Below, piece by piece: positions 46,329 through 64,000 of a stretch of 64,000 bases of DNA. The position numbers and the translations under genes are program-made. The stretch's first letter is position 1. Every line of letters begins with the position of its first letter. Where the stretch lies: positions 1-64,000 of the IMG/VR virus record IMGVR_UViG_3300033072_000181. One strand, given 5' to 3'. The stretch is from a virus. Its lineage: Duplodnaviria; Caudoviricetes. The notes below the pieces were generated by a model. The model was not told the origin of the DNA. It saw only the letters and a list, made by a program, of their open reading frames with translations, and did no database searches.

Positions 46329-46887
46329 TTACGCTCCTTTCAATTAAATCATACACATAATCTCTACTGTACTTTCGTGAAGCTAATAATTTCTTGAATA
46401 AGGCTTTTCGTTTTGCTGCTGGTTTAGCTCCCGGTTTATCCCCCTGCTTATCTGCTGGTTTCAAACTGCTAACTACATCTGTATTATTACATGAATCTTG
46501 TGTCATTGCAAGAAGAACTTTATCTTTTTGTGATTCTTTTAGCTTGTTAAATTCAGTTTGTGCTTTAGCTAACCATTTAGGATGCCGGTATCTGGTATCT
46601 ACTGGACGTTCTAAATAAGTAGCTATCATACGTAACAATTCGCTTACTGTCAAGTCTGACCACCATGCAATATGCCGCTTAAAATTATTTTCAACGTGTC
46701 CGATATAGGAATTTATTGAGGAGTCTATTACGCCCCGTACAAACTGTTCATCATTGTGTGCATGATCTAGACAAGGCTTAGTTAATGGTAGTTGAGTTAC
46801 TAAATCTAACCCTTGTTGTTCCTTGATTAGTAACTCACGTACTTTCTTAGTATCAGTAGCTGTGTATAGATCAGTAGTGTTAGTCAT
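46318..46887 (-). CDS. Recombination endonuclease VII-like protein
   Basis: LDHAH....VRGVI...IN..IG.VE motif. Confidence 0.75.
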   Translation of the reverse strand: MTNTTDLYTATDTKKVRELLIKEQQGLDLVTQLPLTKPCLDHAHNDEQFVRGVIDSSINSYIGHVENNFKRHIAWWSDLTVSELLRMIATYLERPVDTRYRHPKWLAKAQTEFNKLKESQKDKVLLAMTQDSCNNTDVVSSLKPADKQGDKPGAKPAAKRKALFKKLLASRKYSRDYVYDLIERSVNEN

Positions 46888-51529: not shown

Positions 51530-54097
51530 TCAGTGACAACCTGCCCAATTCTTGTGAATAATATAACCTGCTGTTAATTCAACATTAAGTTTGTAGTATT
51601 CACCAGCTTCTGTCACAGATTTTGTAGCTAAGACACCTGCTTCAGAATAGGCACAGTAATAACCTTTATCTGTATGTGCAATATCACTCCAATTATGATT
51701 ACTCTTCTTGAACTCTTTAGCTTCATTCTCTGTGTTAAACATCTTAAACTTAACTAAATCTTTTGTCAATTCTGACTGCGCTTCATCCAACTGTTCAAGT
51801 AGTTCGTTAAGCTACCCTGCAACATTACTTGCTACCTAACGGTTTCCCGCAGGATCGGACTATATCACGGACTATTAAAGTCCCCTGCTATTTCGACTGC
51901 ACTTGCAGCCTACGCCTTACGGCTAGTCTCTGAAGGTTCCTATTTCTAGGCTTCCCTGCTGATTGGCATGTCTTTCGATTTAGCTTTCCAGCAATTAAAC
52001 AGGTTATTCAATGTACCTCACGGCACAAGGCCACAATTACTTATGGTACGCAATCATTTGTTGGCAGAATGACTTAGATTTCCAATCATCTTTAAATAGA
52101 TCAACAATTAAGCCTTTCTCCCTTAACTTTCTATCATGGATAACCATAGCTCGTTTAGCACATATTACACCTGCACTTTGGAAGGCTGTATTAATAACAT
52201 TACCTTTACTTCTGACAGGTAGCTTACGTTTATCTAAACCCAACAAGAATTTCTTCTGACCAGTTGTTTCCCAATACTTCTGCATATTCTCTTTTAACTC
52301 TTTTAGAGGTGATGCTTTATCCCAAAAAGCGTCAAAGATAACTTGAGCGGTATCTAAGTCACAACCTACAATCTTACTGACACGTTTTGGTTGAGCATTG
52401 TAACTACAACCATACTTTACACTCTTAGCAGTACCACGAGGAAACTCCTTACCAATAATACCTGTAATATACTTAGCTAAAACTGTATGGCAATCATTAG
52501 GTTTCTCTGCTGTAAGACTGATCCCGTACTCTGGGCCTCCTTTATATTTATGAACATAATGGCTCTCGATTTTAGCCTCAAGTGAGTCAAAGTCATAACC
52601 CATCTGATAATATCCATCAGCACACCCAAACAATGCTCTCATCTTATCTCCATAGAGAGAGGTTGTACGAGGAATATTACAGACTAACCTATGTTTAAAT
52701 CTAGATGTTCCAGCATCACAAGTACCAGCAGGAGTAGGAATACGGCCATCATCACGAATATTAGCTAAGAAACCTTTCTCTGCTTCTTCGTCATCATCTG
52801 GATCAAAGCCACCACCCAAAATGCTATTACGTCTATGGTTATAAGTTAGAAATTCTACAATCTTTTTAGTATGCGGAAACTCTTTTTCTAATTGTACCAA
52901 TGTAGGATCAATCTCTTTATCTTGACCAATTGTAAATGTAGGATTAGTCAAGACCTTTACAGGTTTAGAAATATCTTTCGCTAACAATGAACGCAACAGA
53001 TTACCTTTTGTAGTTCCAACATGATCTAGCCTATCCCTACAGAAAGCACTAGCTAGTGTTTGTTCTACGTATTTAACAACAGCTTTCTCGTATGTTTCCT
53101 TATCAACTTTTTGTTTCTTAGCATTAACTGTTAAATCTCGTTCTTTATACTGAGTAGGACTCCATCCAAAATGACTAACTAACCATTCCTTAATATGTGT
53201 TGTATCTTTCAGCGTAGCCTTCTCGTGAGTAATCAAAGGTTCTGTGGGGAGAGGTAACTTACGTTCTTCACCGAATAAATATACTGTCCTGTCATCAATA
53301 AAATAACCTGAGTGTTTTTCTACAAAGTTTTTAATATGATGATTAGGAAGTCCTGATTTTAGAAACTGAGTGTTAGGTGGGGTATAAAGTTTAGCATTAG
53401 TCTTAGATAAAGGCTTCTCTGGAATAACTGGTTCAACTTCTGCTTTAATAGTTTCAATCTTTTCATCTAAGTCTTTAACTAAACTAACAGCTAGTTTAGA
53501 ATCAAACATAAAACCCCTATGCTCCTGCCTAGTGATGATCTCTGCTACAGCTTTCTCAAGTTTAATAGCTTCATCCCAAGGCCAATCACCTTTCTCTTTT
53601 AGTAAGTGCAGATATACTTTCTCTGTCAGATTAACGTCTTGGATACAGTATGTTTTCATTTCTTCAGTATATTTACTAAAGTCATGGAAATCAATCTTAG
53701 CAGAACCTAAACGCTTACCCCAAGACTCTAGACTATGACCTCCTAGACGGTCAGGATTAAGTACTTTAGATAAAACCATAGTATCTACAATCTCAACATC
53801 TTTACCGTTGATTGTATCTGGCTCTACTGTGTAATCCATTCCAGTATATAGCTTAATGACCAACATATCATAGTTAATACCGTTGTGCGTAATCACTGTA
53901 GTAGCTTGCTTATAAAACTCAACAAACTTAGTCTTGATATCATCTTCTTCAAACGTATAAACCTTACCTGTATCAATATCCTTACAGACGATTAACCATA
54001 TTCTAAATGATTCTTTCAGCTTGTAAGGCGAAGCTGTATAGTCAATACTTTCGTTGTTTAGCAAGTTGTTTGCTTCAATGTCTAGAACAATACGCAT
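51530..54097 (-). CDS. polA: Family A DNA polymerase, spliced: join(54097..52043,51787..51530), 770 aa
   Basis: Exo motifs LDIE, HNGINYD, YCIQDV; motif A DFDSLE; motif B AKSVKYG; splicing restores motif C YHDE; ends NWAGCH. Confidence 0.93.
51788..52042 (-). mobile_element. Group I intron (IA2-like, ORF-less, 255 nt) in polymerase motif C
   Basis: P1 CCAU/GTGG; AATTGCTGGAA, AATCAGCAG, TTCAGAGACTA, GATATAGTCC; terminal G51788; joins CAT to GAT. Confidence 0.92.
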
Positions 54098-55832: not shown

Positions 55833-56834
55833 TTACTTCTGCTTAATCAAATATTTATTAGAAATTACCTTAAAGCTGTATCGTTCTTCTGTATTCGCTT
55901 TATATACAACACCCTCTTGCTCCGTGTTATATAATTCAGACGTACCTTCAGCTAAAGCCAGTAGCTTATCACAAGTTTCTTCTAAAGGTAAGTAAAATTC
56001 AGTGTGTTTGACTGGAACATGAAGTAGCTCCAAATCATTACATAGTTTACGTACTTCTGAAGGAGTAGCATAACGCTGTTCGTCAATGAAGTAAATATCA
56101 TATACATATAAACGTACATCATTAAACTTATAAATATTACCTTGAATACCACTACCAACTTGCTCACCTTGGATAACTAAATTAATGTTAAGTTTTGTTA
56201 ATTTTTCTTGCAGATTATATTTACGTGCAGTATTCCAAAACGTACCGTCAGGAGAATCTTTTAGTTCTAGGTTACGTGAGCAAACACCAAATGTTGAATT
56301 ATCATAATAAGCCGAGAATGATTGACCTTCTAACTTCTCTGTAACTTCGTAGGATACTCCTAGTTTTGGTTTAGAGATATTCTGGATACGTTCTTGATCT
56401 GTCTTAGGGAAGAAAGCAGGGAAATTACCTTTAGCATCACTACTTGAAAAACCAACAGGAGGCTCCCATTTCTGGATACCTAAGGCTTCGGATACATCAT
56501 TACCTTCTGTTAATTCAACAGATAAATCTTTAATCAAATCAACTGGTAGAATCAACCCTTGAGATAATTGACCACGTAGCTTAATAGTTTTTAAGCGTTC
56601 TCCTTGTACTCCATTGTATTCTTTTGGGGAATGACCAGACTTAGTAAGAAATGGTGCTACTTCTGTTGGGATAAAACTATCAATCTCACAATATACGCAC
56701 AATGAACCAACAGAATATTCACCCTTCTTAACAACAACTTTCCATCCTCCAATACGAGCAATCTCAATAAGGTCTGCTCCTTCAATTGGTAGTAATTCTT
56801 CAATAATACGAATACTTGCCATTTTACGTGTCAT
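55833..56834 (-). CDS. RNA ligase (Rnl2/DRB0094-like)
   Basis: PIEGAD.IE.A...GW.VVVKKGE N-terminus; TEKLEG, QGE..G, EGVV.K, FKVIS..YL. Confidence 0.9.
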   Translation of the reverse strand: MTRKMASIRIIEELLPIEGADLIEIARIGGWKVVVKKGEYSVGSLCVYCEIDSFIPTEVAPFLTKSGHSPKEYNGVQGERLKTIKLRGQLSQGLILPVDLIKDLSVELTEGNDVSEALGIQKWEPPVGFSSSDAKGNFPAFFPKTDQERIQNISKPKLGVSYEVTEKLEGQSFSAYYDNSTFGVCSRNLELKDSPDGTFWNTARKYNLQEKLTKLNINLVIQGEQVGSGIQGNIYKFNDVRLYVYDIYFIDEQRYATPSEVRKLCNDLELLHVPVKHTEFYLPLEETCDKLLALAEGTSELYNTEQEGVVYKANTEERYSFKVISNKYLIKQK

Positions 56835-57660: not shown

Positions 57661-58623
57661 TTATAAATTAACTTTACTACGAATACACTTAAATGTCGGA
57701 TAACGCGGCAGATTAAGACAGCCGAAAGCAAAATATTCAAACTCTACTATATGTCCAACTATAGTACTAGGATTATCCCAAAATTTCTTTCGTTCGTCAA
57801 GTGTTGTTTCACCGGGAGATACTGTAATTTCAGTTCCAGCCTTAGCAATCAAGTTTCCGCTAATATCCAGTAGGTCAGCTAACAAAGTGCCCTGTATGCT
57901 ACCTAGCAAGCCGTTAGGCGTTAGATTCTCTTGGTTGGTACTCCTAGTAGTCCGGCCTAATTCATTCGTTGTAGCGGCGTTATTATTGCTGTTTCCTTCT
58001 GTAATACCTGTTACAAGAATCTCTGCTGTCATAAACGGTTTCCATCGCCATAGATGTACCTTACTCTTGCTGCTACGACCTTCTTTATGTGCAAGATCAC
58101 CAGACCGTAAGATAACACCCTCATAACCTAGTGCAATTAGCTTTTGCTTATACTCTTCGTATTCTTGAATATTATTCAGAATAACAATAGGTACAATATG
58201 GATATTATTCCATCCTTGTAGATTTAGTTCAAGTACTTTATCCACTAGCATATTATATCGAATGCTGTACGGTAAATTAACAGTATCTTCAGTTACATAA
58301 TCGAAGCACCAAAGATGAATATCTGGTTTGCCTTCAATTCTACGCATATCACCGCTTGTTAAACGGCACAATGATTCAGCAGTAGGATCACTTCCTGTTG
58401 TAGCTTCAGCATCAATACCGTTTAATGCAGAATTAGAGAACAAAGATGTAACATGCTTATTCTCATGGTTTTTTAGACTACGTGCGTATGCTACACCGTT
58501 TTGTACTAAGATACGGCAACCATCAGTCTTAGGCATACCATACAAAGGAAATAATTTAGGTAGTTTATCTTCTTGTACATCTACAGCTAATAGCGGTTTG
58601 ATCGGTTTGATTAGTTTAGGCAT
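57661..58623 (-). CDS. ATP-dependent DNA ligase
   Basis: PKTDGCR, IDAE, WCFD, GYEGVILR, RWKPF, PRYPTF. Confidence 0.9.
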   Translation of the reverse strand: MPKLIKPIKPLLAVDVQEDKLPKLFPLYGMPKTDGCRILVQNGVAYARSLKNHENKHVTSLFSNSALNGIDAEATTGSDPTAESLCRLTSGDMRRIEGKPDIHLWCFDYVTEDTVNLPYSIRYNMLVDKVLELNLQGWNNIHIVPIVILNNIQEYEEYKQKLIALGYEGVILRSGDLAHKEGRSSKSKVHLWRWKPFMTAEILVTGITEGNSNNNAATTNELGRTTRSTNQENLTPNGLLGSIQGTLLADLLDISGNLIAKAGTEITVSPGETTLDERKKFWDNPSTIVGHIVEFEYFAFGCLNLPRYPTFKCIRSKVNL

Positions 58624-59268: not shown

Positions 59269-59682
59269 CTACCTGTTTGCTAGTTCATCAATAAGAAACT
59301 GTAGATATTTCTTGCGGTTTTCATAAACACTTCCTTCATTAATACCATATCCAGAAAGTACTCGTTCAATAATACTGGTACCAAATTTCTCCAAATCACT
59401 TACTAACCTAGAATTAAATCGGTTTAGATACTTGCTGTTAGAACATACACCTTGCTCTTTGATCTGTTGTATAAAGTGACAAAGATACTTATATGGTCGT
59501 TCAAAATCATACACAGCAGTACCATACACGTACTTTTTATCACAATATTCAGAATATACATCTAACAAGATACCAAGGAATTCACCGTATGTTTTAGCTT
59601 TAGGAAATACTGGCAATGCAATATCAGTAATACACTGTGGCAACTGGTTGTTATCCATCTTAGTATCAGTTTCACAATTCAT
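59269..59682 (-). CDS. Hypothetical protein, paralogue of 58826..59260
   Basis: Shared motifs and shared DNA segments. Confidence 0.7.
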   Translation of the reverse strand: MNCETDTKMDNNQLPQCITDIALPVFPKAKTYGEFLGILLDVYSEYCDKKYVYGTAVYDFERPYKYLCHFIQQIKEQGVCSNSKYLNRFNSRLVSDLEKFGTSIIERVLSGYGINEGSVYENRKKYLQFLIDELANR

Positions 59683-59693
59683 TTGTTTTTCTC

Positions 59694-60121
59694 CTAGTTA
59701 GTACCACCAGAACCGTATTCTACACTCTTTGTGCAGGCTTTACCACAACTTTCTGTACGTGTAGCTTGCGTTTTAACTGACTTTTCAATACCAGATACAT
59801 CAGCACACACTGTAGAATAAACAGGCTTTTATGAATGTAGGTTTCATATACCTTGCATGAATTAAACTCTCTTACAACGTGCGGTGTTTCTAATCGTTCT
59901 GTTTCAGCTAGTTCGGCAGCTAGTCTAGCTTCTTCTTCAGCTTGTATTGAAGGATCAGAATTATACATAAAAATAGCACCAACTACACAACTTAAAGCAT
60001 TCAACACCATTACACCACCTAGAATTTCTTTATCTTTACCTTCATCATATAAAGAACTACCCACAATACAAAGTAATACAGCTAAGAGTAGTAGCAACGT
60101 AATACCAACGGTTAATGTCAT
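59694..60121 (-). pseudogene. Membrane-anchored protein with an apparent 1-nt frameshift near 59828
   Basis: Two TM segments then PHVVREFNSCKVY; the shifted frame reads KPVYSTVCAD...ESCGKACTK and stops at 59694 against the next SD. Confidence 0.55.
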
Positions 60122-60154
60122 CTTGCAATCCCCTAACGTTAATCAATGATTCGT

Positions 60155-60183
60155 ATCATACGTAACATCCTAACTCTTGTCAA
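60155..60183 (-). promoter_or_regulatory. Promoter at the start of the leftward replication block
   Basis: Minus strand TTGACA-N17-TATGAT. Confidence 0.85.
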
Positions 60184-60227
60184 GAACTTTCTTAACGATA
60201 AGCACTAAAAATATTTTGCACGTACTC

Positions 60228-60255
60228 TTGACAGATCAGAAAACGATGATACAAT
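60228..60255 (+). promoter_or_regulatory. Rightward promoter
   Basis: TTGACA-N16-TACAAT with extended TG. Confidence 0.8.
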
Positions 60256-60303
60256 AGAACCATCAGTTCTAGCAAACGGTATATCATACGTTATAGCTGC
60301 TGT

Positions 60304-60488
60304 TATACGTATGCTATACATAGGTTATAACGTGTATAGTAGCTGCTGTTATATAACATACGATATAATATAGGTATGTATAATTAATTATTCTTTAAAT
60401 ATAATCTATATATTAACGTATATACTAACGGTAATATACCAGTTATATAGCAGTTATAACTAACGTATATACTACCGTTAAGCTAACG
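60304..60488 (+). repeat. Dispersed non-coding repeat, copy B (partner 4604-4777)
   Basis: Same cores as copy A, plus an 11-bp internal insertion tagcagttata. Confidence 0.95.
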
Positions 60489-60516
60489 CTAGTAAATCAC
60501 AAAGTAAGGAGAAATT

Positions 60517-61164
60517 ATGAAAACAACTTTAAAGATTGAAGCTGCACTAGATGCTTACAGAAAGCATACAGGTGAGCTACTATCAGCAGAAGAAGCATTT
60601 GTAGCTGGTTATTGTGCTGCTGTTGATGTGCTATCAGAACGTAATGCTAAACAGGATGATGTATCAGCCGATACAACAAACATTCCTTATGTACAACCGG
60701 CTATTTTATCATCCGTTACATCTGGTACTAAGTTAAAAGAACATCAAGGGTTAAAGAAACAAACGAATTGTCCATTCGATTACAGCACTAAATCTACAAT
60801 TTCTAGTAGCTCAGTAAGAAAAGAGTTTACAAACAGGATTTCATCTGCTAGACTAGCTCAAAATGTAGCGGCATGTAGTACTTATAGCAAAACAGAAGTT
60901 CAGGATTGCTTGTACTTGATACTTAACGCTATCCTTGATAATTTGTTTGAAGGTAACGAAGTAGTGCTTGACAAGTTTGGTGTGTTTAAACTAAAGTATA
61001 ACAAACCTAGACAAGTAGTTAATCCGTTTTATGGTAAGTTTATATCTGAACCTAGCTTGAGTATCCGCTTTACGTTAAACAGAGAATTAAACCGTTATGT
61101 TAGTGCTAATCGAGCAGCACTAATTGAATATTTGAATAATAAGGAGAGTGTAAATGCCAGCTAA
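60517..61164 (+). CDS. HU/IHF-like DNA-binding protein with long N-terminal extension
   Basis: C-terminal ILDNLFEGNEVVLDKFGVF....KPR...NP..GK....P...IRF. Confidence 0.8.
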   Translation: MKTTLKIEAALDAYRKHTGELLSAEEAFVAGYCAAVDVLSERNAKQDDVSADTTNIPYVQPAILSSVTSGTKLKEHQGLKKQTNCPFDYSTKSTISSSSVRKEFTNRISSARLAQNVAACSTYSKTEVQDCLYLILNAILDNLFEGNEVVLDKFGVFKLKYNKPRQVVNPFYGKFISEPSLSIRFTLNRELNRYVSANRAALIEYLNNKESVNAS

Positions 61165-61366
61165 AATTCTTGGAAGTGAAGGTAGAGCAATTAAAGCATA
61201 CCTTGAATTTGAAAATTTGAGTTATGTAATACAAGAACAAAATATTATTAGTAACGGAAAAATAAAGAATGTATTTACAGTTAAATGTAATAGTGAGTAT
61301 AAGAATTTTACTAACTTTTATGATCTTGTTAATTATGTAGTGCATAACGGTCTTGCACTCTGTTAA
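61154..61366 (+). CDS. Hypothetical protein
   Basis: ORF track; AAGGAG SD. Confidence 0.6.
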   Translation: MPAKILGSEGRAIKAYLEFENLSYVIQEQNIISNGKIKNVFTVKCNSEYKNFTNFYDLVNYVVHNGLALC

Positions 61367-61382
61367 GTAAAGGATAGCTCAA

Positions 61383-61634
61383 ATGCCAGTTGAAACCCTA
61401 GGTTATTTAATTATATATTTTAGTTGTTTGATTGCTATGGTTGCAACTAAGTATATTCTATCCTGTGTTAATTCCCAAAAATATATTTGTAGATTATATG
61501 ATAAGGACTATAATAAGCTATATGATAGTTGGTGTTATGGTGAAATTGAGACTGATGAATATTCAGATAAACTAGATAATATTCGTTACAGTTTTATTCT
61601 ATTTACTAATCGAGATAAACATGCGAAAGACTAA
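61383..61634 (+). CDS. Hypothetical membrane-anchored protein
   Basis: ORF track; N-terminal hydrophobic segment. Confidence 0.55.
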   Translation: MPVETLGYLIIYFSCLIAMVATKYILSCVNSQKYICRLYDKDYNKLYDSWCYGEIETDEYSDKLDNIRYSFILFTNRDKHAKD

Positions 61635-61767
61635 ACGAAAGAACAAAGCTAAACAAAGGAATCTAGTAGCTAAAGATTTGTTGACAAACCCTTTGTATAA
61701 GCGTAAGATTCATACCAATCGAAAGAAATCTGAACGTAACAAACACAAGGAGAATGAAAATGACTGA
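61621..61767 (+). CDS. ArfA-like basic peptide (48 aa, not in track)
   Basis: MRKTKRKNKAKQRNLVAKDLLTNPLYKRKIHTNRKKSERNKHKENEND; motif N...LL..PL[YF][KR].[KR][IV]..N[RK]K. Confidence 0.6.
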   Translation: MRKTKRKNKAKQRNLVAKDLLTNPLYKRKIHTNRKKSERNKHKENEND

Positions 61768-61963
61768 AACTAAAGTTGATCCTAACGAAGCACCTGACGG
61801 TTATGTTGCTGTTGAGTATCTAGATGTATGTTGTAGCAATTGCGTTTTTGATTCAGATATTGTAGCTTGCAATAATGCACCTTGTCTAGGTAAGTATAGA
61901 AAAGACAAAACAGCAGTATATTTCATCAAAGCAAAAGCAAAGGAGAACAACTATGGACTTTGA
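61754..61963 (+). CDS. Small Cys-rich hypothetical protein
   Basis: EAPDGYVAV..CSNC.F....C...PC....RKD...VYF. Confidence 0.65.
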   Translation: MKMTETKVDPNEAPDGYVAVEYLDVCCSNCVFDSDIVACNNAPCLGKYRKDKTAVYFIKAKAKENNYGL

Positions 61964-62387
61964 CCTAAAAGATTATGAAGTATATAGCAGCAATAAAGCA
62001 CAATGTTTAGAATGCGGTAGTATTATTGAATCTAAGCACGTACATGACTTTGTAACTTGCAGTTGTGGTAAGTTATCGCTTGATGGTGGAACAGAGTATC
62101 AGCGAGTCGTATTTACTGATTATAGTAAGATTAAGTTTCTATCAGAATTCCGTTATATGTCACTACAAGAAGTAACAGACCGCATCTTACGTAATGAGGC
62201 ACGGATTAAATCTCCATATATTTCTGATTTTTCTAAGACTTATTACAGTGAACAATTAGCATCTGATCTAGCCTATCGTGAGTATTTGCTAGCTGGTAAA
62301 ACAGAGGATAAAGCTGCTAGTAAAGCTGCCAGTAAAGCTGCCAGTAAAGCTGCTAGTAAAGCTGGTACTGACGAACATGAAACCTAA
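61953..62387 (+). CDS. Zinc-binding hypothetical protein with KAAS tail
   Basis: CLECG.IIES.H.HDFVTCSCG.LSLDGG motif. Confidence 0.75.
   Translation: MDFDLKDYEVYSSNKAQCLECGSIIESKHVHDFVTCSCGKLSLDGGTEYQRVVFTDYSKIKFLSEFRYMSLQEVTDRILRNEARIKSPYISDFSKTYYSEQLASDLAYREYLLAGKTEDKAASKAASKAASKAASKAGTDEHET
62309..62368 (+). repeat. In-frame 12-bp tandem repeat TAAAGCTGCYAG x4+ (KAAS)
   Basis: Read directly. Confidence 0.9.
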
Positions 62388-62796
62388 ACACATAAAAGCA
62401 TATATGCGGTGTGCTGAAGCATTTGCTGAATGCAGCAGTAGTACTCGATTGCTAGTTGGGGCTGTTATCGTAAAGAACAACAGGATCATTAGCTGCGGAT
62501 ATAACGCACTTCCAGCACACATTAACGGTAGTTTAGAGGATAGTAATGGTTGTACTAAGCCAGAGGTTAGACACGCTGAAAAGAACGCTCTGTTAGGTCT
62601 AGTTAAATCATCCGAAAGTTCTGTTGGTGCTACTTTGTTCTGTACTCATGCCCCATGTAAGTACTGTGCTATTGATATTGTAGATAGTGGTATAACGTGC
62701 GTTTATTATAAGCATTCGTACAGGTCAAGCGAAGGGTTAGAATACCTGCGAAATAACAAAGTTGAACTACATCTTTTTGTTGACAACGCAGGGTAA
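62377..62796 (+). CDS. dCMP deaminase
   Basis: VGAVIV, GYN, HAEKNAL, THAPCKYC. Confidence 0.93.
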   Translation: MKPKHIKAYMRCAEAFAECSSSTRLLVGAVIVKNNRIISCGYNALPAHINGSLEDSNGCTKPEVRHAEKNALLGLVKSSESSVGATLFCTHAPCKYCAIDIVDSGITCVYYKHSYRSSEGLEYLRNNKVELHLFVDNAG

Positions 62797-62808
62797 GGTT
62801 GGTATGAT
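62780..62808 (+). promoter_or_regulatory. Sigma70-like promoter
   Basis: TTGACA-N17-TATGAT. Confidence 0.85.
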
Positions 62809-62843
62809 TCGTTTGTGTTTAATTTTTAAGGAGGTAACTAGTA

Positions 62844-63302
62844 ATGCCAGAGCACTATTGGGCGCAAGAGCATACGATTGAAGCAGAGCTAGAGACGATT
62901 GCTTGTGGAGCTACTGGTCAGTTATTGCAGAAATGGCAAAAGAAGGCCATATACAAAGCCATTAAACAATTAAAAAAATTAGATAAATCCCGCAGCACCA
63001 TAGCAGAACAAGCCGAGTGGATTAAGCGGCAACACGATGCGATTCTTTCGCAGGACGAAGCTATCAGCCAGTTACAAAATACGCTAATAGAGAGTGCAGT
63101 AGGGCAGGACAAATGCTTGGAGTGGATTAAACAGCTTGAGAACATTCTACAAGAAGTACTAAGAGTTGCACCTAGTGAAATTACGTGCGATAATCTTCAT
63201 CACCGTAAGAAAGATCAACACGCATGTAATGAACCATGTCCTATAGAAATCCGGTATTCTGAAACAATAGAAAATGCCAATAAAGTGTTACAAGGGGAGT
63301 AA
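62844..63302 (+). CDS. Hypothetical coiled-coil protein
   Basis: ORF track; AAGGAGG SD. Confidence 0.65.
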   Translation: MPEHYWAQEHTIEAELETIACGATGQLLQKWQKKAIYKAIKQLKKLDKSRSTIAEQAEWIKRQHDAILSQDEAISQLQNTLIESAVGQDKCLEWIKQLENILQEVLRVAPSEITCDNLHHRKKDQHACNEPCPIEIRYSETIENANKVLQGE

Positions 63303-63303
63303 T

Positions 63304-63447
63304 ATGTAAATCAGCACACAGCATATCCGCTAGCTATGTAAGAAACTTGACGATAAACTGGCGTTAAACACATTGATTGAGCAGCATCAACAAGAGATTA
63401 AAAGCATAGAGAAACAGCTTGCAGAACTATTGACAAGTAACAAGTAA
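63304..63447 (+). pseudogene. Possible small coiled-coil pseudogene with two in-frame stops
   Basis: GGGGAG SD, then ATG TAA ...CGC TAG CTA..., then an open heptad-like LCKKLDDKLALNTLIEQHQQEIKSIEKQLAELLTSNK. Confidence 0.4.
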
Positions 63448-63458
63448 GCACATACAAT
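63430..63458 (+). promoter_or_regulatory. Sigma70-like promoter
   Basis: TTGACA-N17-TACAAT. Confidence 0.85.
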
Positions 63459-63491
63459 TGCTACATCGTTACTGACTAAGGAGAGAAACAA

Positions 63492-63809
63492 ATGGCTAAC
63501 TGTACTGTTGAAACTGTTGTAAAAGAAAAGGTAGTAACAGTGGAAGAAAAAGTTGTAAATCTTGAACTAACTGAAATTGAAGCGTATGTTCTGGCTACTG
63601 TACTAGGTAGTATCGGAGGTCATCCTATTACTACACTTAGGGCTTATTGTGATAACATTCGTGAAAGTTTGAATTTAATTGGTTATGATACACTTCGTTT
63701 CAATACAGTTTGTGTTACTTCAGACGTTTATACTGAAAAGGATACGTTGTATTTTGCTGAAGGTAGTATTAGTATTGCGGAACATCTTAAAAGTCAAGGT
63801 ATCAACTAA
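63492..63809 (+). CDS. Hypothetical protein
   Basis: ORF track; AAGGAG SD. Confidence 0.7.
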   Translation: MANCTVETVVKEKVVTVEEKVVNLELTEIEAYVLATVLGSIGGHPITTLRAYCDNIRESLNLIGYDTLRFNTVCVTSDVYTEKDTLYFAEGSISIAEHLKSQGIN

Positions 63810-63827
63810 TTTTATAAGGAGCGATAA

Positions 63828-64000
63828 ATGCGTAAATGGGTAGTTTGGTGTCTTACAAATAATCTTTCATTTGTTGTCTATATTGTTTTGATTCTCAGCA
63901 TTCCTCTTTATGTGCTAGTTTATATTCCAGAGGGGCTAAAGGATTGGTCTAGAGATTTCCGTTTGCTTAAATCTGAACATAAAAAGATCAAGAGTATTAC
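63828..64000 (+). CDS. Membrane protein, truncated by the window end
   Basis: MRKWVVWCLTNNLSFVVYIVLILSIPLYVLVYIP...; AAGGAG SD; open to the end. Confidence 0.6.
   Translation, partial: MRKWVVWCLTNNLSFVVYIVLILSIPLYVLVYIPEGLKDWSRDFRLLKSEHKKIKSI

Follow-up and report, generated by a model that had tools for sequence, protein, structure and literature searches.

We found that a 48-codon ORF carried by a tailed phage (IMG/VR virus record IMGVR_UViG_3300033072_000181) encodes a robust, divergent member of a large family, which we refer to as DUF7230-like and which comprises more than 600 basic peptides, mostly phage-borne and 40–66 aa in length. Profile comparisons make it very probable that this family is homologous to ArfA, of which it would represent a shortened relative. 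In Gamma- and Betaproteobacteria, ArfA acts as the alternative ribosome-rescue factor that depends on RF2. The ORF itself is, as far as sequence comparison can tell, an ArfA relative by transitive homology, standing outside the ArfA family proper. The window that we analysed, 64,000 nucleotides in length, corresponds to the first 64 kb of the 73.7-kb virus record.

The original prediction placed a basic ORF of 48 aa with a normal stop in this part of the window, and both its ATG and its TGA can be read directly from the sequence (Table 1). The product contains 12 K, 6 R and 2 H against 5 D/E, with a pI of 10.9 and a net charge of about +13. The gene overlaps its neighbours on both sides, as is typical of gene packing: the start of the downstream 67-codon gene overlaps its 3' end by 8 nt, and the overlap with the upstream 83-codon ORF may point to translational coupling of the two. 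Because it is conserved elsewhere, the ORF is beyond a chance occurrence, and there is hardly any doubt that it is both a real gene and a member of the family described below.

Table 1. Features of the 48-codon gene, its immediate surroundings and the promoter-like elements of the window.
Feature	Position	Strand	Description	Basis
48-codon gene	61621..61767	+	ATG 61621, TGA 61765-61767; basic peptide, divergent member of the DUF7230-like, probably ArfA-related phage family	
Residues 1-12, Lys/Arg-rich N-terminal extension	61621..61656	+	unconserved in the family; in place of the ArfA hydrophobic minidomain	alignments
Residues 13-21, family core RNLVAKDLL	61657..61683	+	aligned to ArfA DNAIEALL (residues 13-20)	
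Residues 24-30, PLYKRKI	61690..61710	+	aligned to ArfA Pro23-Val29 (PLFRQRV), A-site mid-region	BLASTP, hhalign
Residues 32-48, basic tail TNRKKSERNKHK then acidic ENEND	61714..61764	+	aligned to ArfA mRNA-tunnel segment (31-47)	hhalign
Upstream 83-codon ORF	61383-61634	+	3' end covers 14 nt of the start of the 48-codon gene	
Shine-Dalgarno-like GAGA, weak	61612..61615	+	5 nt 5' of the ATG of the 48-codon gene	read from sequence
AAGGAG (61747-61752) and ATG 61760 of the downstream 67-codon gene	61747..61762	+		read from sequence
TTGACA-N17-TAAGAT	61681..61709	+	inside the 48-codon gene; placed for a transcript start just 5' of the next gene	
TTGACA-N17-TA[AT]GAT copies	46625-46653, 51741-51769, 60155-60183, 61681-61709, 62780-62808	-, -, -, +, +		motif scan
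TTGACA-16-TACAAT with upstream TG, 11/12	60228..60255	+	divergent intergenic region before the HU-like gene	

When 1.84 billion representative proteins were searched exhaustively with the 48-aa ORF (phmmer), a single relative was recovered, a metagenomic protein of 55 aa (E 8.7e-6, 60% identity over the core). Four further small related ORFs came from a scan of viral contigs, and the profile made of these six sequences (the ORF, its nearest relative and the four ORFs from viral contigs) matched 612 proteins at E<=0.01, with lengths of 41–66 aa. Pfam DUF7230 (PF23876) was present in about half of the family proteins among the matches listed, and two of the 612 carried the JGI name "ArfA". When the family profile was built from 122 relatives, with the ORF and its nearest relative left out, the ORF scored 34.7 bits (E 6.4e-10, among 1060 window ORFs); the second-best window ORF reached 3.9 bits, and the maximum of 5000 shuffles was 9.7 bits. 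In the protein atlas, a DUF7230 cluster ranked second for the ORF, with a score of 0.92.

Neither the Pfam DUF7230 model (gathering cut-off 27 bits) nor the PHROG models matched the ORF; on the former, the relative at L045 scored 37.6 bits, and other relatives scored 15–23 bits. Pfam, PHROGs and NCBIfam returned no relevant match for the ORF, and a MAS20 match from the family libraries (E 7.5) was discarded as meaningless. The word-indexed protein search retrieved nothing besides the ORF itself. Megablast and tblastn searches of cultured phages with the ORF and its neighbourhood also gave no match, a test weakened by the low-complexity filter and the short query.

The family consensus reads KPRNLVAKDL-RTPK-YRMRVV-SKK-Y-RK-KHK, from which the ORF retains RNLVAKDLL, Tyr26, the basic/hydrophobic pattern KRKI and R..KHK. 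Among 119 relatives, D19, Y26 and R39 are invariant, and V16, A17 and K18 are conserved in at least 90%. The ORF deviates at four near-invariant positions, including the Tyr of KK-x-Y-x-R: its residue 37 is Ser, in a column that holds Tyr in at least 90% of the 119 relatives and is aligned with Tyr39 of ArfA. Together with one metagenomic relative or cluster, it forms a separate branch, whose tail reads NRK[KR]x[ED]RNKHK in place of SKKxYxRKxKHK; the tail of the nearest relative reads NRKREDRNKHK, i.e., the tail of the ORF is conserved there. DUF7230 (PF23876), or PHROG 20887, comprises small phage proteins of unknown function that are of the same size as the ORF and share with it the core [KR]xR[ND]LVAKD[LM]xT..Y[KR]x[KR][VI]..KK...R..KHK, to which the ORF adds a basic N-terminal extension.

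Taken by itself, the 48-aa ORF is not demonstrably ArfA-like. The original prediction had set a core segment of the ORF by eye against the core of E. coli ArfA. The ArfA core that it gave was accurate, agreeing with the arfA protein fetched from NC_000913, and the quoted core of the ORF is indeed present in its translation. BLASTP of the ORF against E. coli ArfA picked the same stretch, pairing LLTNPLYKRKIHTNRK with ArfA at 6/16 identical and 13/16 positive positions (E 0.001 for this single pair); the two have LLxxPL[YF][KR]x[KR][VI]xxN[KR]K in common. The outcome was different for the Pfam ArfA model, proposed in the prediction as a check: PF03889 (gathering cut-off 25.5 bits) gave the ORF no match at E<=10. 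A six-frame search of the whole virus record with this model yielded nothing at E<=10 either, whereas E. coli arfA scored 89.7 bits on it. Our own ArfA profile, made of 26 chromosomal ArfA proteins from Enterobacterales genomes, ranked the ORF first among the 1060 stop-to-stop ORFs of the window, yet its score of 6.6–6.7 bits (E 0.35) falls within the range of its shuffles, which reach 10.0 bits. Finally, phmmer of the ORF against the PDB, which contains ArfA chains, returned nothing. The claim of an ArfA-like identity is, overall, upheld for the family, which profile–profile comparison and bridging sequences relate to ArfA, and is not upheld as a direct significant similarity of the ORF to ArfA.

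On the Pfam ArfA model, family relatives scored 16–18 bits (E 1.5e-3 to 7.5e-3), just under the cut-off, and on our own ArfA profile, they scored 17–24 bits. Aligning the family with ArfA by hhalign gave a probability of 88.8% (P 2.5e-6, score 34.8) over 30 collinear columns, corresponding to ArfA residues 17–47 and pairing KDL.T..YR.RV..KK---Y.RK.KH with kAL.t.pLFrqRVEk.kKGKGSY.RK.Kh. For comparison, 200 column shuffles of the family had a mean score of 8.7 (sd 1.8, maximum 16.3), and reversing the alignment gave 8.9. With a narrow alignment of enterobacterial ArfA proteins, the same register was recovered (P 5e-4). In a whole Escherichia genome, the top match of DUF7230 was arfA, although a weak one (12.6 bits, E 0.99). 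Searching the PDB with the 119-sequence family profile did not bring up ArfA at E<=10, and the link therefore rests on the profile–profile comparison together with the intermediates; an NADH dehydrogenase that this profile matched in the PDB was rejected as a chance match.

The intermediates are bridging members that join the family core NxVAKD/E to the ArfA motif KKGKGS. Three such sequences combine NxVAK[DE] or PNLAKRAV with KKG[KR]GS[FY], and on both profiles each of them outscored all 2000 shuffles of its own sequence. Ralstonia phage RsoM2USA contributes an unannotated ORF, reading NVVAKDLR...YRMRVAKKKKGKGSFRR, that scored 26.6 bits on the family profile and 24.7 bits on the ArfA profile. 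For gp30 of pelagiphage HTVC027P, which reads NPVAKEVRTPKY...KKGRGSFKR, the respective scores were 20.1 and 17.3 bits. The third, a 38-aa mini-ArfA from a gammaproteobacterial assembly, reads PNLAKRAVMTPKFRSRIAKAKKGKGSY and reached 18.0 bits on the family profile, 39.5 bits on the ArfA profile and 36.9 bits on Pfam ArfA, above the cut-off of that model. HTVC027P gp30 is transcribed during infection and was annotated as ArfA by the authors who described it (PMC12753301). Like our ORF, it is phage-borne and ends at a stop codon, being 58 aa long, and its NPVAKEVRTPKY core is common to the family; unlike our ORF, it retains the ArfA-type KKGRGSFKR, and a PF03889 domain has been reported in it (PMC12753301).

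Two of these loci deserve a comment of their own. The RsoM2USA ORF (L169:1498-1620 (+), from MG752970.1) spans 40 codons, is ArfA-like and carries KKKKGKGSFRR; the hypothetical gene annotated opposite to it, RsoM2USA_176, is probably a miscall. The mini-ArfA (L131:140-256 (+), from the 1.75-kb contig 62 of assembly G062) is stop-terminated and starts where the phage family starts. It is located on a very short contig of the gammaproteobacterial assembly and may be of phage origin; a tblastn search of cultured phages with it gave no match.

Structural work on ArfA allows the peptide to be read segment by segment. In the ribosome, ArfA His21–Glu30 lie in the A site, where Pro23 stacks on A1492/A1493, and residues 31–48 occupy the mRNA tunnel (PMC5378476). 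RF2 is contacted by ArfA residues 15–31, and the mature protein has 52–55 residues (PMC6299226). The ORF covers both the segment for RF2 contact (15–31, PMC6299226) and the segment for tunnel filling (31–48, PMC5378476), and it shows the A-site mid-region pattern P-L-[FY]-[RK]-x-[RK]-[VI] of ArfA residues 23–29. The length of its tail (residues 31–48) would fit the tunnel, with 6 K/R and 2 H in residues 31–43 and an acidic ENEND; overall, it is less basic than the ArfA tail. In the alignment of its residues 32–47 with ArfA 31–49, a 3-residue gap falls at G-K-G of ArfA, the aligned stretch being RKK-SER and lacking KGKGS(Y/F); in ArfA, no residue of KGKGS is singly essential (PMC6299226). Truncation of ArfA is tolerated at Asn47 and not after Met40 (PMC5378476). 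By alignment, the ORF ends at about Asn47–Gly49 of ArfA, the shortest form that is still active (PMC5378476), in agreement with the original prediction, which had likened its length to that of active truncated ArfA. Judged from the alignments, both the A-site segment and the tunnel segment appear to be present in the ORF, at a length close to the shortest at which ArfA still works.

The N-terminal part is where the two differ most clearly. The ORF lacks the conserved (R/K)GxIxDNA minidomain and has no counterpart of the first ~12 residues of ArfA, and many of its relatives begin only 3 residues ahead of the core. Its Asp19 is aligned to the position of Ala18, which in ArfA lies within the core of the N-terminal minidomain; the Ala18Thr substitution abolishes release and leaves RF2 binding intact (PMC5378476). 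AlphaFold2, run with the family alignment, modelled a helix at residues 15–22, coil at 23–33 and a second helix at 34–47 (pLDDT 75, pTM 0.30), and such a non-globular model fits a peptide that would become ordered only on a partner.

As a whole, the ORF resembles ArfA (YhdL, PF03889) in being a small basic peptide, collinear with it over ArfA residues ~13–47 and having a Lys/Arg tail with K-H. In contrast to ArfA, it is phage-borne, ends at an ordinary stop and has neither an RNase III hairpin nor a hydrophobic C-terminal extension. By description, it can also be set beside other small release-factor-dependent rescue factors, namely ArfT of Francisella and BrfA of Bacillus. ArfT, unlike ArfA, works with either RF1 or RF2 and is thought to be independent in origin; it is 40 aa long and has a normal stop (PMC6299226).

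An arfA-style non-stop regulation of the 48-codon gene was considered and is ruled out by the TGA stop together with the lack of a hairpin and a terminator. No internal hairpin was found in the ORF, the 3' region of which folds no better than shuffles (z 0.27), and no terminator-like site was found within 59500–64000, including the interval between the promoter-like site at 60228 and the ORF. The original prediction of an ordinary stop free of arfA-style control is thus borne out.

The same prediction had noted a promoter-like TTGACA-N17-TAAGAT element, and it lies exactly where it had been placed (Table 1). As a 10/12 match, this element belongs to a kind found 26 times in the AT-rich region, compared with 18.7 +/- 4.1 in shuffles. 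Of the stricter motif TTGACA-N17-TA[AT]GAT, the window contains 5 copies, where 0.87 would be expected, and none of 100 shuffles had as many. Two of the copies are located within the 3' part of coding regions, directly before the next gene, and one precedes the gene at 62844. We suppose that the motif may represent a promoter class of this phage and, judging by position, that the copy inside the 48-codon gene would act on the gene that follows. A strong promoter-like sequence, the TTGACA-16-TACAAT site, is the best candidate for driving the plus-strand small-gene block.

The virus is a lytic tailed phage: its record encodes a tape measure protein, a tail fibre, ribonucleotide reductase, thymidylate synthase and DNA polymerase, along with a primase-helicase, an RNA ligase and a DNA ligase. 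For the primase-helicase, the identity is 75% with Pseudomonas phage vB_PsaM_M1, 69% with Pseudaeromonas phage KLEP7 and 57% with Acinetobacter phages, and the host is therefore probably a gammaproteobacterium. ArfA and RF2-dependent rescue occur in gammaproteobacteria. Since no release-factor or Pth domain was found in the virus record, any release activity of the peptide would need a host factor. The record also encodes two tRNAs, neither of which is a tmRNA.

The plus-strand block around the ORF consists of small genes for an HU-like protein, three small unknown ORFs, a DUF7695 four-Cys protein and a dCMP deaminase. The 48-codon gene is an accessory gene, and no family member was found in the four nearest cultured phages. 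The neighbours offered no usable synteny: searching for relatives via the DUF7695 gene led only to distant loci, and via the HU-like gene, none were found among viral contigs. The DUF7695 protein (61953-62387 (+), E 3e-22) has a C-terminal tandem repeat, KAAS x4, that is absent in the relatives found, and in the HU-like protein (60517-61164 (+)), the HU/IHF-type DNA-binding domain (residues 111–193) follows an extension of ~100 residues with no family match. On the minus strand, 55833-56834 and 57661-58623 hold an RNA ligase (PHROG 968, E 1e-88) beside the primase-helicase, with an ATP-dependent DNA ligase nearby; no polynucleotide kinase was found among the ORFs tested. The RNA ligase hints at tRNA or RNA repair, a theme that it would have in common with a rescue factor.

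In cultured phages, family members were found in Acinetobacter phage ZZ1 (p0006), Sinorhizobium phage phiM19 (gp276), Roseobacter phage CRP-13 and Ralstonia phage RsoM2USA, where they are annotated as hypothetical proteins or left unannotated. The hosts of family-bearing cultured phages comprise Acinetobacter, Sinorhizobium, Agrobacterium, Rhizobium, Roseobacter, Pelagibacter and Ralstonia. Of the 300 gammaproteobacterial genomes searched with the family profile, only 2 gave a match, and the family is therefore mainly viral; a pattern scan of bacterial genomes with the narrow family alignment found no members. In CRP-13 (MW514247.1), the DUF7230-like ORF (L166:1486-1611 (+), 41 codons, GTG start, 35 bits on the family profile) lies in another frame inside the annotated 313-aa gp52, which makes it either an overprinted gene or a misannotation. 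Directly after the family member in two unrelated viral contigs, we observed similar ORFs of 68 aa (sharing ...R.LPVP.DL.E...; L045:5125-5331 and L046:468-674), which may represent a conserved neighbour; it is absent from our window.

How might such a peptide act? The reading that we put forward, with roughly even chances of being right, is that the peptide docks as ArfA does, in the empty tunnel and the A site, and recruits a release factor of the host, its synthesis being free of tmRNA-linked control. The Lys/Arg-rich C-terminal part (residues 32–43) would enter the empty mRNA tunnel of a ribosome at the 3' end of a broken message, and the PLYKRKI segment would occupy the vacant A site. The short helix RNLVAKDLL would then aid a host class-I release factor, most likely RF2, in the hydrolysis of peptidyl-tRNA, thereby freeing the stalled ribosome. 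As the reading frame is closed by an ordinary stop and contains no hairpin, synthesis of the peptide would simply follow transcription of the operon and would escape the tmRNA-dependent control to which bacterial arfA is subject. We infer ribosome binding, release-factor recruitment and the benefit to the phage alike. Constitutive rescue activity and a counter-defence role, as envisaged in the original prediction, are likewise hypothetical.

The same docking might, however, end differently. A peptide that fills the tunnel and the A site and cannot open the release factor would be a blocker or decoy. It might deny host tmRNA-SmpB or ArfA access to stalled ribosomes, or simply park ribosomes. 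The invariance of Asp19 in 119 relatives speaks for such a ribosome binder, given that in ArfA, Ala18Thr destroys release and preserves RF2 binding (PMC5378476); so does the loss of both the first ~12 ArfA residues and KGKGS. Nevertheless, some family members do have Ala at the position of Asp19 (VAKAV in phage ZZ1), and ArfT, like other small rescue factors, is functional with a quite different N-terminus (PMC6299226). Moreover, the residues of KGKGS are individually non-essential in ArfA (PMC6299226), and a lytic phage needs free ribosomes. With these points against it, release-incompetent binding strikes us as rather unlikely.

We regard it as similarly improbable that the product is a basic peptide that binds nucleic acids in general and plays no part in rescue, for example a chaperone of RNA or DNA, or else a condensing or packaged protein. 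Its ArfA likeness would then reflect either shared ancestry without shared function or convergence. Its strong positive charge (about +13 in 48 residues), the lack of a globular fold (pTM 0.30), the proximity of the gene for the HU-like DNA-binding protein and the non-significant direct similarity to ArfA would all suit such a peptide. Still, composition does not account for the similarity between the family and ArfA, which depends on the order of residues: the observed scores are 30.9–34.8 against a maximum of 16.3 for column shuffles. The conserved positions are, furthermore, those of the A-site and tunnel segments of ArfA, and the bridging members have the KKGKGS motif. A far more radical alternative is that the frame is open by chance and that the real role of the stretch is to provide an internal promoter-like element for the downstream gene. 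The weak Shine-Dalgarno sequence, the TTGACA-N17-TAAGAT inside the frame and the absence of the ORF from the nearest cultured phages could be read in this way, but 60% identity to a metagenomic protein, 34.7 bits on a profile of 122 relatives that excludes the ORF, and typical packing with overlaps on both sides make it hardly credible.

Returning to an ArfA-like site of action, it is tempting to suppose that the family, and notably the branch with Asp19 and with neither the Tyr nor the minidomain, serves phages by acting at the ribosomal site of ArfA to another end, although we hold this to be rather unlikely. It could exclude host tmRNA-SmpB or ArfA from non-stop ribosomes, as a blocker, or it could be a rescue factor able to work with both RF1 and RF2. 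In the latter case, phages of hosts that lack ArfA (Alphaproteobacteria, SAR11) could free ribosomes after phage-induced mRNA decay or an attack by defence RNases.

In the literature searched, no working phage-encoded ribosome-rescue factor has been demonstrated; a phage ArfA is mentioned only in a transcriptome study of pelagiphages, which annotates HTVC027P gp30 as such and gives expression data (PMC12753301), and DUF7230 is not mentioned. If peptides of this family do free or block stalled ribosomes, phages would intervene directly in the non-stop rescue pathway of their hosts. This would bear on host shut-off and on defences that cut mRNA or tRNA, as well as on the minimal sequence that makes a release factor independent of a stop codon. 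The 48-aa ORF, standing at the divergent edge of the family, would show which features of ArfA can be lost.
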